A stretch of 64,000 nt of DNA from a virus (IMGVR_UViG_3300037400_003300:16273-80272), one strand, 5' to 3'. Shown: positions 36,049 through 48,007, counted from the stretch's first letter. Numbers and translations: made by a program. Notes: generated by a model not told the origin, from the sequence alone.

Positions 36049-37599
36049 ATGGGCGGTAGGAAAAAGATAATGACCGATGTTCCGGTCGTTACTGCTGAAA
36101 ATATAATATCGATTATTCAAAAAGCAATCGGAGACCATAAAGAAAACGCTGCTAAGATACAGGAATTATTTGATTTTGAAGAGGGCTTTCAGCCACTTCA
36201 AAGAGTGAAGGTGTATCGAAGCGATATTGATATAGATGTGACTGATAACGTAGCTAATGAGATTGTTGAGTTTAAAGTTGCTCTAAACTATGGAAATCCT
36301 ATTTCTTTTAAGAAACGTGGATCTGTAGATGGGATGATTGAAGCAATCGAGATGTGGAATGACCAGTATTTCCTTACGGATTCAGATTCAAGCAATCAGG
36401 AACTTGCAAGAGATTTTGAAATCTGCGGTATTGGAAATGTTTTTATTGATATAAATACTGATTATGAGGAAGGCGATTCTTACTACACAAGAACAATCTT
36501 AAATCCAAGGACTTCATTTGTTATTTACTCATCATATTACTATGACCGCAGACCGATGGTAGGTGTAACGTTCCGTAAAGATTCAGATGGAGTAACGCAT
36601 TACACGGCATTTTCTAAGGATTTCAGATTTGAGATAAAGTATTGGATAATCCAGAATCCGGGGAAAGAAGATGAACCGGTCTGGGCGCATGAGGATAGGA
36701 GTGGAGAAGTAAATCCACTTCATGCGATACCTATTATCGAATATTTTAGAAGTTATGACAGAATGGGATGCTTTGAAAGGCAGATTCCCGCAATGAACAA
36801 CCTTAACCTGCTTGTTTCTGACTTCTCGAATGACGTAGACCAGAACACACAGGTTGTATGGTGGGCAAATGATTGTGAGTTTGAGACCATACAGGTTGTA
36901 AATGAGGATGGGACTGTTACTGAGCAGGTAAAACATCCAAAATCTAACGAATGGCTTCAGACATTTACAACAAGAGATGGCAAGATACCGAAAGTTCAGC
37001 CACTTATCGTTAATTACGATTACGCGGGAATGCTGAATAATTATATGTCTCAGAGAGCATTGATACTCCAGAAGTGTAATGTGCCTCAGAGAAATGATAA
37101 TTCCGGAGGAAGCACAGGTGTTGCAATGAGTGATGCTACCGGATGGAGTGCAGCTGATATTGCGGCAAATAAAGAGGAAATGATTATCTCTAAGAGTATC
37201 AGACGGGAGATAAAAGTTATCTGTGCTGCGATAAGAGAAAGCGCATGTCCTTTGGACAGTCCACTTAGAAAGATTAAGCCATCCGATATTGAGCCAAGCA
37301 TAAAGAGACAGAAGAATTATGAACTTTCAGTAAAGACAACGGCAATATCTAATCTGATTAATATTGGATTCAGTCTTGAAGATACGCTTGATGCTGTACC
37401 ACTGTTTCCAGATCCGGCACAGGTTATTGAGCGAAGTAAAGAAGGTGTGGAAGCATATCAGAAAACAAAACTTAAGCAATCCGAAAAGAGTGAAGAAAAA
37501 GAAGCAACGCCCGGTTCAGACGATCCCATATATCAGATTGAGAACAGCCCTAATATAGATGGAATGAACACAGATAATGGCGAAGAGGATGAAAATTGA
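36049..37599 (+). CDS. portal protein
   Basis: 516 aa; position between terminase and head-morphogenesis genes. Confidence 0.65.
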   Translation: MGGRKKIMTDVPVVTAENIISIIQKAIGDHKENAAKIQELFDFEEGFQPLQRVKVYRSDIDIDVTDNVANEIVEFKVALNYGNPISFKKRGSVDGMIEAIEMWNDQYFLTDSDSSNQELARDFEICGIGNVFIDINTDYEEGDSYYTRTILNPRTSFVIYSSYYYDRRPMVGVTFRKDSDGVTHYTAFSKDFRFEIKYWIIQNPGKEDEPVWAHEDRSGEVNPLHAIPIIEYFRSYDRMGCFERQIPAMNNLNLLVSDFSNDVDQNTQVVWWANDCEFETIQVVNEDGTVTEQVKHPKSNEWLQTFTTRDGKIPKVQPLIVNYDYAGMLNNYMSQRALILQKCNVPQRNDNSGGSTGVAMSDATGWSAADIAANKEEMIISKSIRREIKVICAAIRESACPLDSPLRKIKPSDIEPSIKRQKNYELSVKTTAISNLINIGFSLEDTLDAVPLFPDPAQVIERSKEGVEAYQKTKLKQSEKSEEKEATPGSDDPIYQIENSPNIDGMNTDNGEEDEN

Positions 37600-38233
37600 T
37601 GAACTTAATATCTTAAGCAGTGAGAATACGCATGAAGAGGAGTCTTTTGATTATAAAGATTATATGGAGCATTACTTTGATACTATGCAAATCTCCGAGA
37701 AGCAAAAGAGAGAGCGTATTGAAGAAGCAAAAGAGATACTTGATGCAATCTTACTGTTTTTGATATGGTGCGAAGAAAATCCTGAGAACGTGCAAAGAGA
37801 AGATACAAAGCGCGATATGGAAAATCTTTACAAAGAAGTCATCTTTCAGAAAGTCGAGCCTGATGATTTTGTTGATATGTACGTTCTGTTCTTTATAAAC
37901 AATCTGGTAGAAGTAACAACGGAGAATGAAGGTGATGAATACTTCACATCTGTTGAAAGAGCTACAAAGATTGCATGTAATGAAGCAAACAGCGTTATCA
38001 ACTATTCAGAACTGCAAAGAGCCATTGAACAGGGATACACTTATAAGCAATGGCACACAGAGCTTGATGAGAAGGTTCGTGAGACTCATCAGGAGATGGA
38101 AGGTGTTACGATTCCTATAAACGAGCCGTTTTTTGTTGGTAATTCCAGGATGATGATGCCACATGACATAACAATGGGAGCGGATGCGAGAGAGATAGTT
38201 AATTGTAGGTGTTCACTTTCATTTTTGGATTAA
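37577..38233 (+). CDS. head morphogenesis protein (SPP1 gp7 / Mu F family)
   Basis: C-terminal REIVNCRCSL motif. Confidence 0.7.
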   Translation: MAKRMKIDELNILSSENTHEEESFDYKDYMEHYFDTMQISEKQKRERIEEAKEILDAILLFLIWCEENPENVQREDTKRDMENLYKEVIFQKVEPDDFVDMYVLFFINNLVEVTTENEGDEYFTSVERATKIACNEANSVINYSELQRAIEQGYTYKQWHTELDEKVRETHQEMEGVTIPINEPFFVGNSRMMMPHDITMGADAREIVNCRCSLSFLD

Positions 38234-38409
38234 TATGGTTCGGGACAGAGACGTTAAACCTGTTCGAGAAGTCGTAGAGCGCGACTATAAATAAGGCTCA
38301 ATCGTATGAATACCGAGAGCGGCGGTCATAATACCGCTTATAAAATGTAAACCTTTGAAAGCTATGATGCATATCATGGCTTTTTTTATTGCTCAAAAAG
38401 GAGAAGGTC

Positions 38410-38598
38410 ATGATTACAAGTATTCAAGCAAATAGCGCAAACGGTGTAGGACATTTAGCATGTGATACAGAAGCAGACCTTGCTAATCTTCCGGATTACG
38501 CAAAATCAAATAACTTGAAACAGGGGACTGACTGCATTGTTATTGATACATCCAACGTATACATGATGAAGTCGGATTATACCTTTAAGCAGATTTAA
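38410..38598 (+). CDS. hypothetical small protein
   Basis: RBS AAAGGAGAAGG. Confidence 0.35.
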   Translation: MITSIQANSANGVGHLACDTEADLANLPDYAKSNNLKQGTDCIVIDTSNVYMMKSDYTFKQI

Positions 38599-38609
38599 GG
38601 AGGAAAACT

Positions 38610-39032
38610 ATGGATGTTATATCGTATGTTCTCTCCAAACGAATAGCTGAAGGCGCAGTATCGGGCGTGGCAGAAATGACTGTTGATGGGCAGACCTTAA
38701 ATATAGAATGTACGGATGGAACACACCTGGAAATGGATTTTCCTATGCCTGCTGATGGTGCATCTATAACAGATGTTGAGATCATCTCAAATGGACATCT
38801 TATCTGCACGTTATCTAATGGGAATACGATTGATGCAGGGAAAGTCCCAGACGTACTTACAAGAATCGAGTCTGTCAGCGACATAGACGATGTTGAGCTT
38901 GACGCTCTTGCAGATGGGCAAGTTCTTTCGTGGGATGAAACAAGTGGCAAATGGACTAATAAGGATACTGGCGGTTCAGTAGATGAACTGACACAGGAAC
39001 AGGTAGAAAACCTGCTCTCAATAATACAATAA
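38610..39032 (+). CDS. tail-fibre-associated protein
   Basis: AGGAGG RBS; in tail-fibre-like module. Confidence 0.4.
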   Translation: MDVISYVLSKRIAEGAVSGVAEMTVDGQTLNIECTDGTHLEMDFPMPADGASITDVEIISNGHLICTLSNGNTIDAGKVPDVLTRIESVSDIDDVELDALADGQVLSWDETSGKWTNKDTGGSVDELTQEQVENLLSIIQ

Positions 39033-39042
39033 AGGAGAAAAT

Positions 39043-39702
39043 GTGATGGCAAATTTTGTTTCTAATGACAATATGACCGAATTGATGAATGGTATTGCAA
39101 CAAAGTTTAATAGTCTTGGAGGAGCATGGAAGTTCAGAGGTTCTGTTACATTCGCTAATCTTCCATCAACTATCACCCCTGCAATGGCAGGTTATCTTTA
39201 CAACGTGACCAATGACTTTACAACAGATGCTAGATTCGTTGAGGGTGCAGGCAAGAAATACAAAGCAGGAACCAATGTAGCAGTTGCAGATTTGACTACA
39301 TATTCAGCTGTAACACCGGTTGGTTCAGAAGATCCTTCATCGGAAGGCTGGTATGAGCTTATCAATGGAAAATACATTCTTTCAACAGATACAGTAGTTG
39401 ATAGTGAAAAGACATATTACAGTGCTGTAGTAGATGTGAAGTTTGATGTAGCGGGTTCTTTTGAAGATTTAGAGAATGTCTACAACATGATCGCAGGTAC
39501 ATTTGATGATACAGAGCCTTACAGCACTGGCGATGTTGTAATTTATGAGGGTGGCCTTTACAAATTTAAAGCGGATCATGCAGCAGGGGCTTGGGATGTT
39601 TCTGAGGTTGATAGTACAAAAGTTGCAGACCTTGTTACAGCAGCAGAACCAGACAGCCTTACGCCTGCACAAATCAATGCGTTGTTAGCACTTCTTGATT
39701 AA
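39043..39702 (+). CDS. tail fibre-like protein (paralog of 59552..61003 N-terminal region)
   Basis: shared FxxLPS...G.LYNVTxxFTT...EGAGxxYxAGTNV and ...GKTYY segments. Confidence 0.5.
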   Translation: MMANFVSNDNMTELMNGIATKFNSLGGAWKFRGSVTFANLPSTITPAMAGYLYNVTNDFTTDARFVEGAGKKYKAGTNVAVADLTTYSAVTPVGSEDPSSEGWYELINGKYILSTDTVVDSEKTYYSAVVDVKFDVAGSFEDLENVYNMIAGTFDDTEPYSTGDVVIYEGGLYKFKADHAAGAWDVSEVDSTKVADLVTAAEPDSLTPAQINALLALLD

Positions 39703-39713
39703 GAGGGAAAGAT

Positions 39714-40166
39714 ATGAGTCTAAAAAACTATATGGCTTATGGGGATGCTGAAACCATCCTCACAAGCTATGCAAATAGAATAAAGCAAAGTCCTACGACA
39801 TTTGTTGGAACAACGGCAGAGTGGAATGCACTATCAGCTTCAGAAAAAGCAGAATATGTCCTTGTAGACATTACTGACGATGAGAGTTCACTTTCAGGAA
39901 TGCCAAGATTTCCAGATTATTCTAATCAGATTACAGTTGATGGAAGCCCTTGGACAGCTACAGAAGATTGTTATATTACTTATACATTATGCAATAGTGT
40001 ATACAGTACAGATAACAGGCTTCAGATTGATGGAAATGTTGTTAGTACCTATAGTAGCGCAGGTGGAACTTATGTACATCAATTCAATGGTTATGTTAGA
40101 GAAGGTCAGATAATATCTGCGGATGACGTTTATAGTCTTAGAGTATTTCCGCTACTAGGAGATTAA
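39714..40166 (+). CDS. hypothetical structural protein
   Basis: ORF track. Confidence 0.4.
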   Translation: MSLKNYMAYGDAETILTSYANRIKQSPTTFVGTTAEWNALSASEKAEYVLVDITDDESSLSGMPRFPDYSNQITVDGSPWTATEDCYITYTLCNSVYSTDNRLQIDGNVVSTYSSAGGTYVHQFNGYVREGQIISADDVYSLRVFPLLGD

Positions 40167-40180
40167 GGAAGGAAAAGACA

Positions 40181-42142
40181 ATGGGATTATATAAGAATAA
40201 TAATGGTGTTTTAATTCCCATAGCAGGGCGCGGAAAAGCGGAATATGGAGCAAGCACTACAAGAAGAAATACTTGGACAAATAGCGAAGCTATAAATCCG
40301 GATTCAAGTATTGCCTTTTCTGTATCATTCGATGTACCGATGCCTGATGATAATTATGAGGTCGATTGGACTTGCAGTGCAAGCGCATTACACCCTGTTA
40401 TAGAAGGAAAGACAGCAAGTGGTTTTACAGGTCATGCATATAGGCTTATATCTCCTGCGGTAGAAATCGGGAATGGTGTTATCAATTTTACAGCATTCAG
40501 ACTATATACGGATCTTGAATACAACGAACTTTTAGATGATACTTCCGGGTTAATAAAAAACACCTCAGAGATGGGAGCTGTCAACCTATTTGAGACCACT
40601 TTAAAAAGTCAGAGGTACAATAAGGTAATCTATTCAGTTAATGCCGATGGAACAATTGGCATTGAGGTACTTGAAAGACCTACAGGAAGTACCGGAAATA
40701 TTATTGGGTGGATTGAGGTAAAGGCAGGAGAGACTTATAAGCTCACAGGTGGAATATCTGAAACCGAAAGACTTGAACTTAGGAATGCCGATTATAGTGC
40801 GTGGACAAATAATACAGCAGGTAAGACTGTTTCTTCTCCGGTTGTAGCCACAAACATTGATACATTTATGCCTAATGATGATGCTACTATAATGGTTTAT
40901 TGCCGCATAGATGAAACAGGCAACACCGGAAATGTCGGCACTTTAGAGCCTATGATAAGATTTGCTTCCTTTTTGGAGGACACTTTCTTACCGTATGCAA
41001 AGACCAATAGGCTTTTGACAGTAGAAACAGATGAATTATTCGATAACGCCTCTATGCTCAAAGGCATGACAGCAATAACAGTTCAGACGGATCTTGATGA
41101 TGTTACTACTTTAGGCAATTACTATAAATCAAGCACATCTATATATGTGACTAATGCTCCGACAGGAATCGATTCAGAGACAAGTGCGATATTCAGGCTT
41201 AATGTTGAGAACGGTTCTGATTCTACAGATAAATACATACAGACAATCATCAAGAATGATGGGACAACCTACAAAAGAGGTTATGACGGAACGAATTGGA
41301 GCAGCTGGATAGAGTTTGCTTCAAGTGCCACTGTTTCAAGCATAAATACAAGGCTTACCGCAGCTGAAACAGATATAGACAACCTTGAATCAAGTAGATT
41401 AAAGACATATACGTCTGATGCAACGGCATGGGACACGGTGCCTACATCTTTAAGCGTAAAGCCTGTTACAAGTGGCGGCATAAAGACTGCGCTTGATAAT
41501 AAGCTTGCTACATATGCAGGTGATGATACAGCTTGGGACACAACCCCTACAGCGAACAGCACAAACCCTGTTACAAGTGGCGGCGTAAAGACTCAGATTG
41601 ACACTATCAACGGCAACAAGGCTAATCAGACTGTCATAGCAACAAGGCAGGCTAATCTTGTCGCTTCAAGAAGGTACGAGATCGGAGATCAGTTCATTTA
41701 CAATAACACTCTGTATAAAGCTACACAGGTTATTGAGCCAAACACAAATATCAATATCGCGGCAGGTGGAAATGCTACAACGGCAGACAATATTAGTTCG
41801 CAAATTAGCAATTTAGGGAATTACTCAACAACTGAACATTTAACAGGCAAATATTGGGTAGGTGGGAAACCGATATATAGAAAAGTAGTTAATTTTGGTA
41901 TGTTACCGAATAATACAGTTAAAACAGTAAATCATAATGTTTCTGGTATTTCTGATTGGGTATCTTTTTATGGTATAACATGGAACAATGCGAAAACTAG
42001 CATGGTATTACCTCATGTTGATTTTGATTCTTCATATTCTGTTGCGCTTTGGGTTACTTCAACAGCTATTACAATAAAAACAGGGCAAAATAGAAATGAA
42101 TTTTCAGAATGCTATGTGATACTTGAATATACCAAAACGTAA
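40181..42142 (+). CDS. tail fibre / receptor-binding protein with invertible C-terminal segment
   Basis: AWDTxPTxxSxxPVTSGG(I/V)KT repeats; inverted repeat at 41797 lies inside the gene. Confidence 0.6.
   Translation: MGLYKNNNGVLIPIAGRGKAEYGASTTRRNTWTNSEAINPDSSIAFSVSFDVPMPDDNYEVDWTCSASALHPVIEGKTASGFTGHAYRLISPAVEIGNGVINFTAFRLYTDLEYNELLDDTSGLIKNTSEMGAVNLFETTLKSQRYNKVIYSVNADGTIGIEVLERPTGSTGNIIGWIEVKAGETYKLTGGISETERLELRNADYSAWTNNTAGKTVSSPVVATNIDTFMPNDDATIMVYCRIDETGNTGNVGTLEPMIRFASFLEDTFLPYAKTNRLLTVETDELFDNASMLKGMTAITVQTDLDDVTTLGNYYKSSTSIYVTNAPTGIDSETSAIFRLNVENGSDSTDKYIQTIIKNDGTTYKRGYDGTNWSSWIEFASSATVSSINTRLTAAETDIDNLESSRLKTYTSDATAWDTVPTSLSVKPVTSGGIKTALDNKLATYAGDDTAWDTTPTANSTNPVTSGGVKTQIDTINGNKANQTVIATRQANLVASRRYEIGDQFIYNNTLYKATQVIEPNTNINIAAGGNATTADNISSQISNLGNYSTTEHLTGKYWVGGKPIYRKVVNFGMLPNNTVKTVNHNVSGISDWVSFYGITWNNAKTSMVLPHVDFDSSYSVALWVTSTAITIKTGQNRNEFSECYVILEYTKT
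41797..41814. repeat. inversion site IR1-L TTCGCAAATTAGCAATTT
   Basis: 18/18 match to the reverse complement of 42399-42416. Confidence 0.7.
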
Positions 42143-42400
42143 TTAAACTTTTATGCAAACAATACCAGCACTCATTGTTACATTGTTAGCCCCACTTACC
42201 ACCTTTGTACATTGAACATCAACATAATTACTCACTACATGTATTGCAGAAAAAACAACTGTCCAGTCGTTTGTGCTAAAAGCAAGCAATGAATGATAGG
42301 CGTAACCACTTGGAACATATAATCTTACAGATATGGTGTTTCCTAGATTCATGTTGTTGTATGTGGTATCGCCTATTACGGTTTTAAAGCGATTGGTCAA
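42143..42400 (-). CDS. alternative tail-fibre C-terminal cassette (promoterless, inverted)
   Basis: no own N-terminus; the IR encodes SQISNL in the same frame as in the + gene. Confidence 0.55.
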   Translation of the reverse strand: MTNRFKTVIGDTTYNNMNLGNTISVRLYVPSGYAYHSLLAFSTNDWTVVFSAIHVVSNYVDVQCTKVVSGANNVTMSAGIVCIKV

Positions 42401-42416
42401 ATTGCTAATTTGCGAA
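42399..42416. repeat. inversion site IR1-R (reverse complement of IR1-L)
   Basis: AAATTGCTAATTTGCGAA. Confidence 0.7.
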
Positions 42417-42483
42417 ATAAATAAAAATCGAATTAGATAAAAAAATGCATTCTAAAATAAAGACTTTTATAAAGGAGAAAAAA

Positions 42484-42747
42484 ATGAAAACAAAATTTTA
42501 TACTCTTATTATCAAGACTTATGATAATGGAGCCGATGACAAAACATCGTTGTATACGTATGACACATTCGATGAAGCGATTTCCGCAGCTCATACTCAG
42601 TGGGGACAGAACGTCGGTGCTGACACGATAGCAAGAGTTATGGCAAAGGTAACTAGCAGTTACGGAGTAGATTATCCTCTTCATACGCTGTATTGGGAGA
42701 AGCCCCAGCCCCAGCCTGAAGAAGAGGAAGAGGAAACTTCAGAGTGA
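42484..42747 (+). CDS. hypothetical protein with acidic PQPQPEEEEEE tail
   Basis: AAAGGAGAAAAA RBS. Confidence 0.4.
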   Translation: MKTKFYTLIIKTYDNGADDKTSLYTYDTFDEAISAAHTQWGQNVGADTIARVMAKVTSSYGVDYPLHTLYWEKPQPQPEEEEEETSE

Positions 42748-42880
42748 TTCTTATAAAAAGGTAAAGAATTTATAAGAAACCTCTGCTATGTATATGCTAA
42801 TAATTTGCAGAACAGAAAACTCATTTCATTATGAAAAAAATATGATGCCCCTTGTCGATATAATAAGGCAGGAGGTGCTT

Positions 42881-43867
42881 ATGGAAGAAGTAATTAATAA
42901 AATCGTAAATGCAATGGATGATTTAACACCAGAGCAGATCAGAAAATTAAGGAATGTGTTGGTTATTAATTTGAATAATCAACCAAGTCAAAAAAATGAA
43001 GTGAGTATAGGGATTGAGAATTGGGAGCAGATTATTAAGAATTATCTAGGATGTAAAAAACTTGAAAACTGTGCAGATGGAACCATTATGAACTATCGAA
43101 GAATTTTAAGGATAATGTATTCTGAGATTGGAAAATCAATAAAAGATATAACGTCTAATGATTTGAGATTTTTTATGGCTAAGTATATAGAAGAAAGAAA
43201 AATCTCGATGCAATATTCAGAGAACATTAGGCATATTTTGAATGGATTCTTCAGATGGTGTCAAGATGAAGAAATAATCCAGTCGAATCCGGCGAGAAAG
43301 CTTCAAAGGATAAAAGTTCCAAAGCTAATAAAGAAACCTTATACAGCAGAGGAAAGACTTAAACTTACAAGAACAGCAAAGTGCATGAGAGACATGGCAA
43401 TCATGGAAGTTTTGTATAGCACTGCGGGCAGACTTGGAGAAATCCTTGCTTTGAATAGAGAGGATGTAAAGTTTATTGGTAACAAAGCGGAAATCATAAT
43501 ATATGGACAGAAAGGCAAGGCAGAGAGAAAAGTCTTTCTTACAGAGCAAAGTGTTTATTATCTGAAGAGTTACCTTGAAAGTCGAACAGATAATGATCCT
43601 GCATTATTTGTATCTTTAAGAAAGCCATTCCATAGGATTGATGAAAGAGCAGTTCAGTTAATGATTAAGAATCTCGGAGAACGATGCGGAGTTGTTGCAC
43701 ATCCACATAAGTTCAGAAGGACTCTATTAACTGATATGAGTAAACGTGGAGCAAATATTCAGGACATAAAGGAATATGCCGGACATGTGAAGATTGAAAC
43801 GACCATGCTCTATGTTTCGACCAATGAAGAGTCAGTAAAAGCAGCATTTGATAGATGCATAAGCTAA
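42881..43867 (+). CDS. tyrosine recombinase (candidate invertase for the flanking invertible segments)
   Basis: GGAGGTG RBS; ...STAGRLGE (R), HKFRRT (HxxR), TTMLYV (Y). Confidence 0.75.
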   Translation: MEEVINKIVNAMDDLTPEQIRKLRNVLVINLNNQPSQKNEVSIGIENWEQIIKNYLGCKKLENCADGTIMNYRRILRIMYSEIGKSIKDITSNDLRFFMAKYIEERKISMQYSENIRHILNGFFRWCQDEEIIQSNPARKLQRIKVPKLIKKPYTAEERLKLTRTAKCMRDMAIMEVLYSTAGRLGEILALNREDVKFIGNKAEIIIYGQKGKAERKVFLTEQSVYYLKSYLESRTDNDPALFVSLRKPFHRIDERAVQLMIKNLGERCGVVAHPHKFRRTLLTDMSKRGANIQDIKEYAGHVKIETTMLYVSTNEESVKAAFDRCIS

Positions 43868-43912
43868 TGTAATGAACTCTTTTAGGCTGTCCGGAAGGAT
43901 GGCTTATTTTTC

Positions 43913-44254
43913 ATGCATTTTTTTAATGTGGTAAGGGACGTTAGAAAACATGCGCAATTTAGCAAATTTGCGAACGCTGGGGCGAAAGGAACTTATTTTA
44001 TTCTTGCTCTTAACGCAACATACACAGCAGGTTCCGATGGCTATTTGCAAATGTCTGCCAGTGCTCCTGCGGGTTCGGCAGTAATCGTTGAATTTTACGA
44101 TAGAAGTGGTGTCCATATGTTTACTGTGTTTGAGGTAACACCAGTCCAAAATATGGGCTCAAGCTCTGCTATATATGTTAAGAAAGGAATGATGTTTAAA
44201 GCCACAAGAATTGATGCTGGCGCACAGGCTATCTTCAATCCATTTAGTTATTGA
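43913..44254 (+). CDS. 113-aa protein with invertible C-terminal segment
   Basis: IR2-L at 43956 lies in codons AQFSKFAN. Confidence 0.5.
   Translation: MHFFNVVRDVRKHAQFSKFANAGAKGTYFILALNATYTAGSDGYLQMSASAPAGSAVIVEFYDRSGVHMFTVFEVTPVQNMGSSSAIYVKKGMMFKATRIDAGAQAIFNPFSY
43956..43975. repeat. inversion site IR2-L AATTTAGCAAATTTGCGAAC
   Basis: 20/20 reverse complement of 44493-44512. Confidence 0.7.
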
Positions 44255-44264
44255 TAACGTTTAT

Positions 44265-44492
44265 TTAAAGCCAAACCAAAAACCTCACTGCTATATTTGC
44301 GCTCTCGTTATTGAACGCTTGGCAAATTGAGCTTGCCCCTGAAGTATTTGAATTGTAATTAATAAAATACCTTGCTGTTTGCTGGCAAACACAAGTCATT
44401 CTGGATTTAGTACCGAAAAATTTTCCTGATGGGAGAAAATATTGCCCCCATGATTGAGGCGGCACTACAATCCAGTCTGAATCATAATCTGG
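44265..44492 (-). CDS. alternative C-terminal cassette for gene 43913 (inverted, promoterless)
   Basis: frame through the IR reads EFSKFAN, same as the + gene. Confidence 0.5.
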   Translation of the reverse strand, partial: PDYDSDWIVVPPQSWGQYFLPSGKFFGTKSRMTCVCQQTARYFINYNSNTSGASSICQAFNNESANIAVRFLVWL

Positions 44493-44512
44493 GTTCGCAA
44501 ATTTGCTAAATT
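44493..44512. repeat. inversion site IR2-R GTTCGCAAATTTGCTAAATT
   Basis: shares TTCGCAAATT core with IR1. Confidence 0.7.
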
Positions 44513-44595
44513 CCGTAATTAAAGTATTTATATAAAGAGCATAAAGATTGCTTTTAATTTTTTTAAAATCAAATGGATTAAAACAGGAATTAAAA

Positions 44596-44721
44596 TGCCA
44601 GTAAAGAAAGTAAAAGGTGGTTACAAATGGGGCGATAGCGGAAAAGTATACAAGAAAAAAGAAGATGCTTTAAAGCAAGGACGCGCCATAGAAGCCAATA
44701 AAAAGAAGAAAAAGCGTTGAA
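44596..44721 (+). CDS. small lysine-rich protein
   Basis: 41-aa ORF MPVKKVKGGYKWGDSGKVYKKKEDALKQGRAIEANKKKKKR. Confidence 0.3.
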
Positions 44722-44904
44722 CCTTTCAAGGTCAGATGGTACAGTATAGAAAAAGGTGCTACCCACGATAACGGTTAACCCGAAATAATGGTAATAATAC
44801 CCGCTAGTTTCTCAGGCTGGGCGGTTATTTTATTGCCTGATAATTTTTGAATATTAACAGGGATAAGACATTCCATTACGGAGTGTCTTTTTTGAGGGCA
44901 AAAT

Positions 44905-45243
44905 ATGTTTACAACAGGGCAGATTTGGGCTTTTTTTGTAGTACTTATAGGACTTATCCTTACGATATTAAACATCATAGAGAAAGTAATCCTTTTAAAA
45001 GCAAGGTCAAAAGAACCACAGGCTAAGTTAGAGAGCAGATTAGTGGCTCTTGAAACATGGAAATCAGAAGTGAATCAGAGACTTGATAAGGATGAAGAAC
45101 ACTTTGACAAGATTGACGAAGGTAACAAGGTAACACAGCAGGCTTTACTTGCGCTGATGGATGCCGCTTTGTCAGATGATGGAAGTAAAGGTGAACTGAA
45201 ATCAGCAAGAAAAGACCTCTATGAATATCTGTCAAAGAAATGA
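44905..45243 (+). CDS. membrane-anchored coiled-coil protein
   Basis: N-terminal TM helix. Confidence 0.4.
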   Translation: MFTTGQIWAFFVVLIGLILTILNIIEKVILLKARSKEPQAKLESRLVALETWKSEVNQRLDKDEEHFDKIDEGNKVTQQALLALMDAALSDDGSKGELKSARKDLYEYLSKK

Positions 45244-45455
45244 AAGGAGACACCATGAAACTTAGTGATTTCTTGGCTGCTTTAAAAAATCCTAATGTTC
45301 AGGTTGCAGTTACCGACTTGCAGGATGCTGAGATATGCAAGATTTTTGCTTCTTCTTATCCAGCGCTTGATGAATCGGTCAGCGAGAGAACAATAAACAG
45401 ATGGTCAATCAAAACAGCAACAAGTATAGAGATTGTGCTGAATGATGCTCCATAA
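45240..45455 (+). CDS. hypothetical protein
   Basis: ORF track. Confidence 0.35.
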   Translation: MKGDTMKLSDFLAALKNPNVQVAVTDLQDAEICKIFASSYPALDESVSERTINRWSIKTATSIEIVLNDAP

Positions 45456-46192
45456 AATTATTGGACTTCAACTTTAAATGTGATAGAATAGCATGGATGC
45501 TACCAAAAGCGGTAGGCGGTTGGCTCTTTGCCAGGTTATACCTGAGAACTCCCTTATTAAAGGAGGTGTTTTATGGGAAATCTGCTATGGAGCTTTGATG
45601 CTAAGACTATTGCTTATTACTTTGAGCATGGACTTAGTGATAATGGGAACTATAATCCTCATTGTTGCAATCATATCAAAGTTCAAGAAATAAATTTTTC
45701 CATCAAAAAAGACCGCTGAACACTTTGACCGAGTAGAAAGCGATCTCTTTTGATTGCAACTATTAATCAGAGCTAACCGTCTATCGGTAGCATCTTTCTA
45801 CAGACATAATAACATAAATCCTATAAAAAGCAAAATTCCATAATGCTTGCTAGCCAAATCATCCCCCATGATTGGCTTTATCTCCTCCTACAAGGCATCT
45901 ATGTTTCATCGCATAGATGTCTTTTTTGTCTGCAAAGGCATAATTTTTCCTTTTACTAGGGCGTATGACAGTCAAATGTCATGCGCCTTTTTCTTTGTCT
46001 GCCAAGATGAAGACTCGTTATTAAACCTCCGGGGTGCCTATCTGTCAAAGGATTCGTGCCCTATCACGCTCAGAGTAATCTGGGCGTTTTTTTGTGTCAA
46101 GGAAAAGACTTAGAAACCCTGAGAGAACAGCAAACACGCCATGAGGTTAGAGAAAACCTCACCAAAAAACACGAAAAGGAGAAAACAAAGAT

Positions 46193-46858
46193 ATGAAGAA
46201 CAGAACCATCGGAACCAATGAATTGTTGCCTATGAACTTACAGTTTTTTGCTGAGGATGCGGGTGAGGGGGCAGACGAAAGCTCCGGTTCGACGGACAAC
46301 GGAGAAACAAAGCCTGAACCCGATGAGGGCGAACCATCCAAGAGTTATGAGGATGCGTTAAGTGAGATTGCCGCAGCTAAAGCGGAAGCAAAGAAGTTAA
46401 AGGCAGAAAGGGACGCGGCACTTAAGAAAAGTGGTGAGATTTCCAAACAGCTTAGAGCAAAGATGTCTGAAGATGAACTGAAAGCAGAACAGGATGCACA
46501 GGCTAAAGAGGAATACGAAGCTCATGTAAAAGAACTTGAGCAGTACAAAGCCGAGAACGAAGCACTTAAGCGTTATAGGCTTCAAGGCATGACTGATGAT
46601 CTTGCAGCCAAAGCTGCAAAAGCAGAAATCGAGGGTGACATGGATGCTCTTGCGGATGTTCAGAAACAGCATACGCAGTCTCTTATCAAAGCAAAGGAAG
46701 CTGAATGGAAAGCGTCACGCCCAAGAGTAAACGTTGGCGATGATGAGGATTCTTCTATGACAAAGGAAGAGATTTTAGCAATTCAGGACAGAGATGAACG
46801 TACCAGGATGATTGCTAAGCATCTTTCTTTGTTTGAACAAAAAAACAAAGGAGAATAA
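46193..46858 (+). CDS. scaffolding protein
   Basis: acidic, coiled-coil; N-terminal MNLQFFA motif; upstream of the capsid gene. Confidence 0.55.
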   Translation: MKNRTIGTNELLPMNLQFFAEDAGEGADESSGSTDNGETKPEPDEGEPSKSYEDALSEIAAAKAEAKKLKAERDAALKKSGEISKQLRAKMSEDELKAEQDAQAKEEYEAHVKELEQYKAENEALKRYRLQGMTDDLAAKAAKAEIEGDMDALADVQKQHTQSLIKAKEAEWKASRPRVNVGDDEDSSMTKEEILAIQDRDERTRMIAKHLSLFEQKNKGE

Positions 46859-46861
46859 AAG

Positions 46862-48007
46862 ATGGCAGCTGAAAAAAATCTAATCAAAAAAGCCGATCTT
46901 GCTAGAGCAAGAGAAGTCGATTTCGTCTATCGCTTTACCGACAGTATCAATAAGCTTGTTGAAGCTCTTGGTGTAACAAGAAAGGAAAAAAAGGTTGCAG
47001 GTACTTTTCTTAAGGCTTACAAAGCAACCGGAACTCTTCAGGACGGACTTGTAGCAGAAGGTGATCTTATTCCTCTTAGCCACTACAAGACTATACCTGT
47101 TAACTTCGGTGAGATTCCTTTCAAGAAATGGAGAAAGGCTACATCCGCTGAAGCTATTATCGAAAAAGGCTACGAACAGGCTGTAACAATGACAACAGAC
47201 GAGATGCTCAAGGATGCTCAGAAGGGTATCAAGAAGTATTTCTTCAACTTCTTGTCACAGGGCACAGGTCTTGCATCAGGAACAACTTTCCAGTCAACAC
47301 TTGCAGCTATTTGGGGACAGCTTCAGGTACTTTTTGAAGATACAGAGATTGCAGCTGTATACTTCATGAACCCACTTGATGTTGCTGATTATCTTGGAAC
47401 AGCTCAGATCACATTGCAGACAGCTTTCGGTATGTCTTATATCGAGAACTTCCTTGGACTTGGAACAGTTATCCTTAATTCCAATATTCCAAAGGGAACT
47501 ATCTATGGAACTGCTAAGGAAAACATAGTTCTTTACTACATTCCTGTAAATGGTGCTGATCTTGGAGAGGTATTCCAGTTCACATCTGATGAGCTTGGAT
47601 ATATCGGTATCCATGAAACATCTGATTATGACAACATGACAGCAAAAGATACTGTTGTTTCCGGTATCGTTTTGTTTGCTGAGAGAATCGATGGTATTGT
47701 TGTTGGTTTTATCGGTGGTTCTATCACACCTACAATCACAACTGACGTTGATGAGATCACAATTCCTGTTGGCGGAATGGATACAATCCATGCTAAGGTT
47801 GCACCTGCTGGAACATCCTTCACATGGACATCTGATGACACAACAGAAACATATGTTAAGGTTACTCCTGGACTTGACAATGCAGATGTTGTTATCACAG
47901 GTGTTGCAACAACAATTTCCGGTGGAACAGATTCACCCGTTACACTTACATGCACAGCAGGCGGCGTAACAAAGACTGTAACTGTTACTGTTTCAGCTAG
48001 TGCTTGA
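46862..48007 (+). CDS. major capsid protein with C-terminal Ig-like (Big_2-type) domain
   Basis: position and size; the C-terminal ~90 aa is rich in T/V and G, like an Ig-like decoration domain. Confidence 0.55.
   Translation: MAAEKNLIKKADLARAREVDFVYRFTDSINKLVEALGVTRKEKKVAGTFLKAYKATGTLQDGLVAEGDLIPLSHYKTIPVNFGEIPFKKWRKATSAEAIIEKGYEQAVTMTTDEMLKDAQKGIKKYFFNFLSQGTGLASGTTFQSTLAAIWGQLQVLFEDTEIAAVYFMNPLDVADYLGTAQITLQTAFGMSYIENFLGLGTVILNSNIPKGTIYGTAKENIVLYYIPVNGADLGEVFQFTSDELGYIGIHETSDYDNMTAKDTVVSGIVLFAERIDGIVVGFIGGSITPTITTDVDEITIPVGGMDTIHAKVAPAGTSFTWTSDDTTETYVKVTPGLDNADVVITGVATTISGGTDSPVTLTCTAGGVTKTVTVTVSASA

Follow-up and report, generated by a model that had tools for sequence, protein, structure and literature searches.

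The invertible segment across the recombinase gene from a phage tail-fibre switch is probably the silent half of a four-site shufflon

Phage host range is set by tail-fibre shufflons, and the same shufflons confuse metagenome assembly and annotation. At the pneumococcal ivr/creX type hsdS loci, the gene of a tyrosine recombinase is located between the expressed gene and silent partial copies, as it is in the locus that we describe here. Among phages, the Rin shufflon has been described in Bifidobacterium prophages (Mavrich et al., 2018; PMC6109161) and also in Eggerthella prophages (PMC8778435). We analyzed a window of 64,000 nucleotides of viral DNA (IMGVR_UViG_3300037400_003300:16273-80272; all positions are counted from its first letter) in which one recombinase gene has an invertible segment on either side, and compared it with related loci retrieved from sequence collections (handles of the form L001). 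We consider it likely that a tail-fibre shufflon with four sites is operated by the recombinase encoded at 42881-43867, that the segment at 43953-44515 forms its second half and is silent, and that the two cassettes of this segment, 2a and 2b, are spare fibre tips and not the end of a separate 113-aa protein.

A megablast search of positions 39000-46000 against 50,697 phage records returned no match and, using tblastn, the recombinase reached at most 37% identity in cultured phages, so that no annotated reference is available for this locus. The tail-fibre gene (40181-42142, + strand, an ORF of 653 aa) consists of a constant part that runs to site A and of the expressed tip 1a. The constant part is 84-95% conserved in L007, L012 and L042, and different tips are joined at the site A point in L001, L007, L012, L042 and L058, which locates a crossover site inside the 3' part of the constant gene. 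Cassette 1b (42143-42406, - strand) is the silent alternative tip of this first segment; in L001 it is the tip joined to the fibre. A small conserved gene (42484-42747, + strand, an ORF of 87 aa) separates site B from the recombinase gene, followed just upstream of the recombinase gene by a degenerate site-like sequence (pseudo-site E, 42792-42815, - strand) that matches the position of site B in L005 and forms the left end of the block, made up of the recombinase gene and segment 2, that is missing from L042. Within the fibre gene, we also observed two tandem 105-nt units that are 73% identical (41405-41606; ..TY.SDATAWDT.PT..S.KPVTSGG.KT..) and are found in 2 or 3 copies in relatives.

The recombinase (42881-43867, + strand, 328 aa) was assigned from Pfam, PHROG and NCBIfam profiles as a Xer-like tyrosine recombinase without an arm-type N-terminal domain. 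It matched Phage_integrase (1.3e-28) and Phage_int_SAM_4 (2.7e-9) in Pfam and integrase in PHROG (2e-40); its NCBIfam matches were XerA/XerC/XerD-like and below the cut-offs, and no Rci model was matched. The catalytic R-K-H-R-H-Y residues (R184, K211/K213, H276, R279, H302 and Y311) are invariant in the alignment, and dN/dS for this gene is 0.04-0.05. Its transcript ends at an intrinsic-terminator-like hairpin with a T-run (43883-43911, + strand). Further along are the codons that precede the core of site C (the leader, 43913-43960, + strand, whose frame is open in the window lineage only), cassette 2a (43961-44254, + strand, reading SKFAN AGAKGTYF...NPFSY) and cassette 2b (44265-44507, - strand, reading SKFAN PDYDSDW...FLVWL). 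Two observations concern the surroundings. In the region 36049-48007, the fibre genes and the shufflon, along with a holin-like gene (44905-45243), have the portal and Mu-F head genes on one side and the genes for scaffold and major capsid protein on the other, an unusual place for a host-recognition module. Beside site D, a 41-aa lysine-rich protein (44595-44720, PHROG 31267) recurs unchanged in 307 blocks of the contig collection, most of them from bovine or rumen samples, which indicates that the phage family is widespread.

The repeat that bounds segment 2, AATTTAGCAAATTTGCGAAC, is present once per strand in the window, at 43956-43975 (+) and 44493-44512 (-), and no further copies were found in the 64 kb with up to 3 mismatches allowed; 0.03 matches were expected by chance, and two copies were present in 0 of 100 shuffled sequences. 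The full inverted repeat spans 23 nt with one mismatch, 20 nt of which are perfect (43953-43975 and 44493-44515), and delimits a segment of 563 bp (43953-44515) beside the recombinase gene. Across the left repeat, the + strand ORF 43913-44254 (113 aa) reads ..HAQFSKFAN followed by AGAKG..; on the opposite strand, the frame 44265-44534 reads ..TEFSKFAN followed by PDYDSDW.., terminates at 44265-44267, and lacks a start codon ahead of the repeat. The original prediction, made from the sequence alone, had described this geometry correctly: the 20-mer lies inside the AQFSKFAN codons of the 113-aa gene with its perfect reverse complement at the distal end, and translation confirmed that the - strand ORF lacks a start of its own and continues in frame as EFSKFAN through the distal repeat. 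It had also proposed the exchange of a 92-aa tail for one of 76 aa. Inversion would indeed change which ORF tail abuts the left flank, with the correction that the alternative tail is 75 aa long (76 codons including the stop).

Using an exact-protein look-up of a 67-aa fragment of cassette 2a, we retrieved two independent assemblies from other samples, L001 (Logan SRR9036511) and L002 (ENA ERZ27256908), in which the flanks are 99.95-100% identical to the window and 43953-44515 is reversed at 99.6% identity. The alignment blocks overlap exactly in both repeats, which places the breakpoints inside them. Recombination between sites C and D inverts segment 2. The second invertible segment that had been predicted across the recombinase gene from the first is thus borne out by L001 and L002, and its bounding repeat is related to the repeat of the fibre segment. 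In L001 the fibre segment (segment 1) is reversed as well, the L002 contig ends at the fibre-distal repeat of segment 1, and either orientation of segment 2 is found among the more distant relatives L004, L007 and L012. Only two complete configurations were seen, with both segments as in the window or both flipped. A further contig, L015, is 100% identical to the window and ends at 43985, just beyond the left repeat, the pattern expected of an assembler that meets a mixed population. Short-read assemblers can misjoin at inverted repeats, and the apparent inversion could in principle be such an artefact; however, the repeat of 23 nt is below the k-mers used, and long contigs obtained from separate samples with different assemblers (window, L001, L002, L004, L007 and L012) include both orientations, so we regard this explanation as having a negligible probability. 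Overall, the rearrangements with breakpoints in the sites comprised the inversion of both segments and the replacement of cassettes exactly between sites.

The repeat of segment 1 (41793-41814 and 42399-42420) lies inside the 653-aa fibre gene, on the other side of the recombinase gene. By scanning all fetched loci, we identified a site layout common to the four sites A, B, C and D, consisting of a left arm, a 7-bp spacer (TTAGCAA) and a right arm that is an inverted copy of the left one, with consensus sequences GTTCGCAAA (left) and ATTTGCGAAC (right); this design holds across about 20 related loci. Site A (41796-41821, + strand) has the left arm GTTCGCAAA (9/9 to consensus), its spacer at 41805-41811 and the right arm TTTAGGGAAT (6/10). 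Site B (42392-42417, - strand) has the left arm TTTCGCAAA (8/9), its spacer at 42402-42408 and the right arm TTTGACCAAT (5/10). On the segment 2 side, site C (43950-43975, + strand) combines the left arm ATGCGCAAT (6/9) and the spacer 43959-43965 with the right arm ATTTGCGAAC (10/10), and site D (44493-44518, - strand) combines the left arm TTACGGAAT (5/9) and the spacer 44503-44509 with the same right arm ATTTGCGAAC (10/10). The arm that is kept in good condition is therefore the outer (left) one in the segment 1 sites and the inner (right) one in the segment 2 sites. In the spacer, AGC-AA(T/A) encodes Ser-Asn/Lys, and the cassette always continues in that frame, both for the four cassettes of the window and for those of the approximately 20 loci. 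By spacer polarity, A/C and B/D are direct pairs, and A/B, C/D, A/D and B/C are inverted pairs. Repeats are near-perfect within each pair of sites in the window and the arms differ between pairs, so that recombination across pairs is probably rarer than within them.

The register of the sites was fixed using relatives in which both arms are intact (L018, L019, L029 and L045-L051). An alternative register, in which A would be direct with D via the shared GTTCGCAAATT and cross-recombination would yield a truncated fibre (..SSQIC*), was dropped, since the relatives show the full arm-spacer-arm design and a constant cassette frame. The sole IMG/VR match to the two-good-arm site TTCGCAAAWTAGCAANNTTGCGAAC was L041, in which a different cassette is joined to a fibre end; it is not an A x D product of the window phage. 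One relative carries an irregular cassette: at L007:5640-5760, the distal segment 1 cassette is one base out of frame with its site, which may reflect a decayed cassette or a sequencing error.

In the model of the original prediction, taken here with the corrected tail length and widened to include a short fibre, segment 2 would be an independent second switch acting on a small protein (a fibre partner, a chaperone or a short fibre) that starts at the ATG at 43913, and inversion would swap its C-terminal 92 aa for 75 aa behind a fixed promoter and the first 21 codons. Several observations are consistent with this: the ORF is open from its ATG in the window, L001-L003, L012 and L015 with both cassettes in frame, small proteins of 94-195 aa with this C-terminal domain exist, and the window phage itself encodes a 150-aa protein with a similar 'PDYSN' C-terminal part. 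However, the open leaders are 96-100% identical to one another and count as a single lineage, and the frame is broken in the other lineages, by a TAG together with the absence of a start in L004, by a TGA in L005/L016 and by a TAA in both L007 and L017, amounting to four of the five window-clade lineages that carry segment 2; the corresponding flank is closed in a sister clade too, by a stop that precedes the site by two codons. The region around the ATG also argues against a translated leader. The hairpin at 43883-43906 (-15.1 kcal/mol, z = -3.6) is conserved in L004, L005, L007, L017 and L046, the ATG follows its T-run by 1-2 nt, and no promoter-like site was found between the recombinase stop and the ATG at 43913. 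The only SD-like motif is located about 14 nt upstream of the ATG, inside the hairpin, leaving no usable ribosome-binding site. The leader is thus probably not translated, some translation being possible in the window lineage, where the ORF is open. The proposed unit of a fixed promoter and 21 codons does not fit a terminator that abuts the ATG and a leader that is broken in relatives, and the 21-aa N-terminus offers no virion-attachment domain.

Two other ways of translating the cassettes in place were examined and rejected. Gene callers place internal starts that give ORFs of 67 and 66 aa, and conservation begins upstream of them, for instance at PDYDSDW; read-through from the recombinase gene, which is in the same frame as the 113-aa ORF, would meet two intervening stops (TAA and TAG). 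No family was assigned to the 113-aa ORF, to 2b, to 1b or to the fibre by scans with Pfam and PHROG.

Cassettes of the same kind are the C-termini of fibres elsewhere. In L009, the fibre continues in frame from the end of its constant part (..NATTADNVTSQIS) into a cassette with 75% identity to 2b, which we describe as a fibre-tip domain. In L040, a complete segment 2 module of the L007 type (94.6% identity over 609 nt, bounded by sites) is found at a 400-aa fibre gene with one of its cassettes fused in frame; both of its sites are hybrid, made of a fibre-side left arm and a segment 2 right arm. The L004 fibre expresses a cassette that L007 stores in segment 2, and one pair of cassettes occupies different slots in L051 and L053. 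Conversely, slot D of L003 (96% identical to the window) holds a cassette of the segment 1 type, resulting in a site with two poor arms. A profile of 2a retrieved 21 representatives among 1.84 billion proteins, with the 2a-like domain at the extreme C-terminus of proteins of 143-685 aa (P0008, 685 aa; P0009, P0016 and P0023), and several profile matches of about 100 aa start with site-encoded residues. Cassette 2a also aligns with the expressed tip of L019 (E-values 1e-5 to 5e-7, in a small database), and AF2 models it as a jelly roll made entirely of beta strands that matches C1q-like and tail-fibre proteins weakly; together with the profile and dN/dS, this is the basis on which we describe 2a as a jelly-roll fibre-tip domain of a 'YTAxSDGY' family. 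The role as fibre partner or chaperone is not supported by these comparisons, in which 2b-like cassettes and cassette 2c are fused to the fibre gene (L009, L040 and L004) and 2a is C-terminal on fibre-like proteins. Taken with the state of the leader, they make a separately switched small protein unlikely. The census of expressed tips was drawn from contigs; among 5.8 billion proteins searched, we found no long fusion protein with 2a or 2b.

Both cassettes are under purifying selection, including in lineages with a broken leader. For 2b, dN/dS is 0.06-0.19 (for example dS 0.45 and dN 0.04 between the window and L007); for 2a it is 0.22 between the window and L017 (dS 1.2) and about 0.58 among close relatives, which indicates only moderate constraint. 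Since the cassettes are constrained although the leader is broken, they are expressed somehow, and not via this leader. Constraint also bears on whether segment 2 is an invertible regulatory element, such as a promoter for the downstream 41-aa and holin-like genes. Weak promoter-like matches are present inside the segment (+ strand 44442-44471 and - strand 44509-44481), but they score 9/12, and 11 such matches were found versus 13.7 expected in shuffled sequence; with the segment filled by two conserved coding cassettes, we consider a regulatory role very improbable.

We then return to the reading that we prefer, in which 2a and 2b would be promoterless spare fibre tips and the 113-aa ORF an accident, an open frame that happens to run into site C. 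Stored tips would be used only once joined to the constant part of the fibre, through recombination of a segment 1 site with a segment 2 site. Recombination of A with D would turn round everything between these sites, the recombinase gene included, and a subsequent B x C event would restore the orientation of the recombinase gene and leave the cassette pairs swapped; the flip of segment 2 would choose which of its two tips is presented next. Site-specific exchange between co-infecting relatives would provide a second loading route. In the window's lineage, neither a fibre::2a or fibre::2b fusion nor a flipped recombinase gene was found, the contigs that span both genes being three (window, L001 and L015), and the fibre-fused cassettes of L009, L040 and L004 are homologous to segment 2 cassettes without being the window's own.

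That cassettes move from one slot to the other is supported by comparison with relatives, namely by hybrid sites, a shared spacer change and a block flip in the sister clade. In the hybrid sites, right arms move with the cassettes and left arms stay with the flanks, which indicates that exchange occurs in the spacer. The three sites of L017 that are visible, A, B and C (4152, 4711 and 5839), all have TAGTAA in place of TAGCAA, with the Ser codon kept (AGT for AGC). The sister clade (L026, L027 and L030, from human gut metagenomes, with a recombinase 53% identical to that of the window) has a constant gene of 149-159 aa, a pair of cassettes, the recombinase gene and a second pair, with four near-identical sites (GTGAACTAAATAGTAAGAC) and a different set of four cassettes in each genome. 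Between L026 and L027, the outer flanks are 98.8-99.4% identical and are swapped relative to the recombinase block, so that the recombinase gene is co-oriented with the constant gene in one and convergent in the other, which requires A x D or B x C recombination. In the third genome of this clade, the contig opens with 55 nt (L030:1-55) that repeat the flank and site found downstream of the recombinase gene (L030:1729-1783) and that here adjoin a cassette from upstream of that gene; a circle excised when direct sites recombined could account for this, as could a simple overlap in the assembly graph.

Cassettes also move between genomes. In L058, L056/L059, L060 and L012, flanks or recombinase modules that are 99.6-100% identical to the window enclose different cassettes exactly between the sites, and at least 5 different cassettes abut the same site B (segment 1, 41793-42420). 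Precise replacement of pairs within near-identical flanks indicates that phage genomes frequently exchange pairs of tips at the sites. The recombinase module is itself mosaic with boundaries at recombination sites, as L012:5519-7095 is 99.8% identical to window 42399-43975, from site B to site C only, a stretch with the small gene, the recombinase gene and the leader, and 84-91% identical outside. Inversions alone cannot split a tail-to-tail pair; as relatives nevertheless show individual cassettes in new combinations, routes besides inversion must contribute. Two contigs from one study (L056, SRR30827617, and L059, SRR30827636) share a deletion of 43084-44732, by which they have lost segment 2, the 41-aa gene and the greater part of the recombinase gene, and would be a locked variant without recombinase. 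The 45-kb contig IMGVR_UViG_3300033463_000266 (L009:1-137 and L041:12504-12557) has a fibre end fused to one cassette at its start, and the same fibre end, inverted and fused to another cassette, at its end, with no recombinase gene in the 6 kb downstream; this looks like the assembly signature of a shufflon with at least 5 cassettes.

Such traffic between genomes would also be needed if segment 2 were a passive reservoir, a hitchhiker that is flipped since its sites are still recognized, that never reaches the fibre within one genome and that is used over evolutionary time via co-infecting phages. The precise replacement of pairs described above fits this explanation, as does the lack of an A x D product in the window lineage. 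Most relatives (L018-L022 and L045-L052) have segment 1 only, and L042, whose fibre is 94.6% identical, has neither recombinase gene nor segment 2, with 42798 joined directly to 44503, inside site D (L042:7870-7890), a junction suggesting that the entire block was gained or lost at sites. Against a purely passive role stand the purifying selection on 2a and 2b within segment 2 across lineages, the spacer shared by all four sites together with its coordinated change in L017, and the two-sided layout, which is kept at 53% recombinase identity and in which the block is flipped between 99% identical genomes. On balance, a passive reservoir seems to us rather unlikely, and we retain a silent half that can be loaded onto the fibre.

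The decay of one arm per site, complementary between the segments, may have a function like that of the lox66/lox71 half-sites. A segment could then flip back and forth freely, and loading by A x D would generate a site in which both arms are good and another in which both are poor, biasing or locking the new configuration and setting up a hierarchy of fast and slow switching. Co-infecting phages could also use these sites to exchange tip pairs, in the style of recombinase-mediated cassette exchange. Both kinds of hybrid site predicted by this idea exist, with two good arms in L040 and two poor arms at site D of L003; we put it forward as a speculation that we ourselves rate as doubtful.

If segment 2 is a silent half, the recombinase gene of a fibre shufflon can divide it in two, with a reserve of silent tips on one side, and each phage may have four receptor-binding tips, not two. 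The silent slot would then yield spurious small proteins from gene callers, for example the 113-, 67- and 125-aa ORFs. Precise replacement of pairs between sites in genomes that are otherwise 99-100% identical suggests that tips are drawn from a common pool, and related rumen and gut phages appear to trade tips by site-specific recombination. The abundance of the family makes it a workable natural system in which to study the choice of partner sites by a Xer-like invertase.

The locus is best read as a tail-fibre shufflon of the Rin type whose layout is unusual in being split, the recombinase gene lying between an expressed pair and a silent pair. As in the Rin system (PMC6109161), the nearest known counterpart, an armless XerD-like tyrosine recombinase is encoded beside the cassettes, crossover takes place in the 3' part of a constant receptor-binding or fibre gene, each of the dissimilar, promoterless C-terminal cassettes follows a short asymmetric site, and inversions were seen by genome comparison. 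Unlike in the Rin system, where rin is located at one end of a single array, the recombinase gene of the window is between two pairs, the sites have an unrelated sequence (no copy of the rix motif TTCCCTAACCC occurs in the window), the half-sites show complementary decay, and host and phage lineage are different, the phages here being low-GC ones from rumen and gut metagenomes. The R64 shufflon (Rci, sfx and pilV) is alike in using a tyrosine recombinase on sites with a 7-bp spacer and one well-conserved arm, a likeness of site design only, and in keeping silent C-terminal cassettes for one constant gene, with inversion of single or grouped segments. It differs in that its target is a pilus adhesin and here a phage fibre, in that rci lies outside the invertible DNA, and in that sfx sites all conserve the same arm, whereas here it is the left arm in segment 1 and the right arm in segment 2.

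The exchange of fibre C-termini by inversion, with a change of host range, is shared with Gin, Cin and Min (Mu, P1 and p15B) and with the gin shufflon of the FR-phi phage (PMC13418256), and Min has several segments, as here. However, the Gin, Cin and Min enzymes are serine invertases under enhancer/Fis control and the window recombinase belongs to the tyrosine family, and the switchable unit of Mu and P1 includes a separate assembly gene (U/U'), for which we find no support here. In phase-variable type I restriction hsdS systems (cf. PMC7672463), the target gene and its function are unrelated to those of the window. Finally, the shufflon of BV01-like Phocaeicola phages (PMC13596623) resembles the locus in being multi-cassette, recombinase-flanked and overlapping with the 3' end of the fibre gene, with all configurations seen in reads, and differs from it in forming a one-sided array of three cassettes with the motif TGGGAGAACT in a different phage group.
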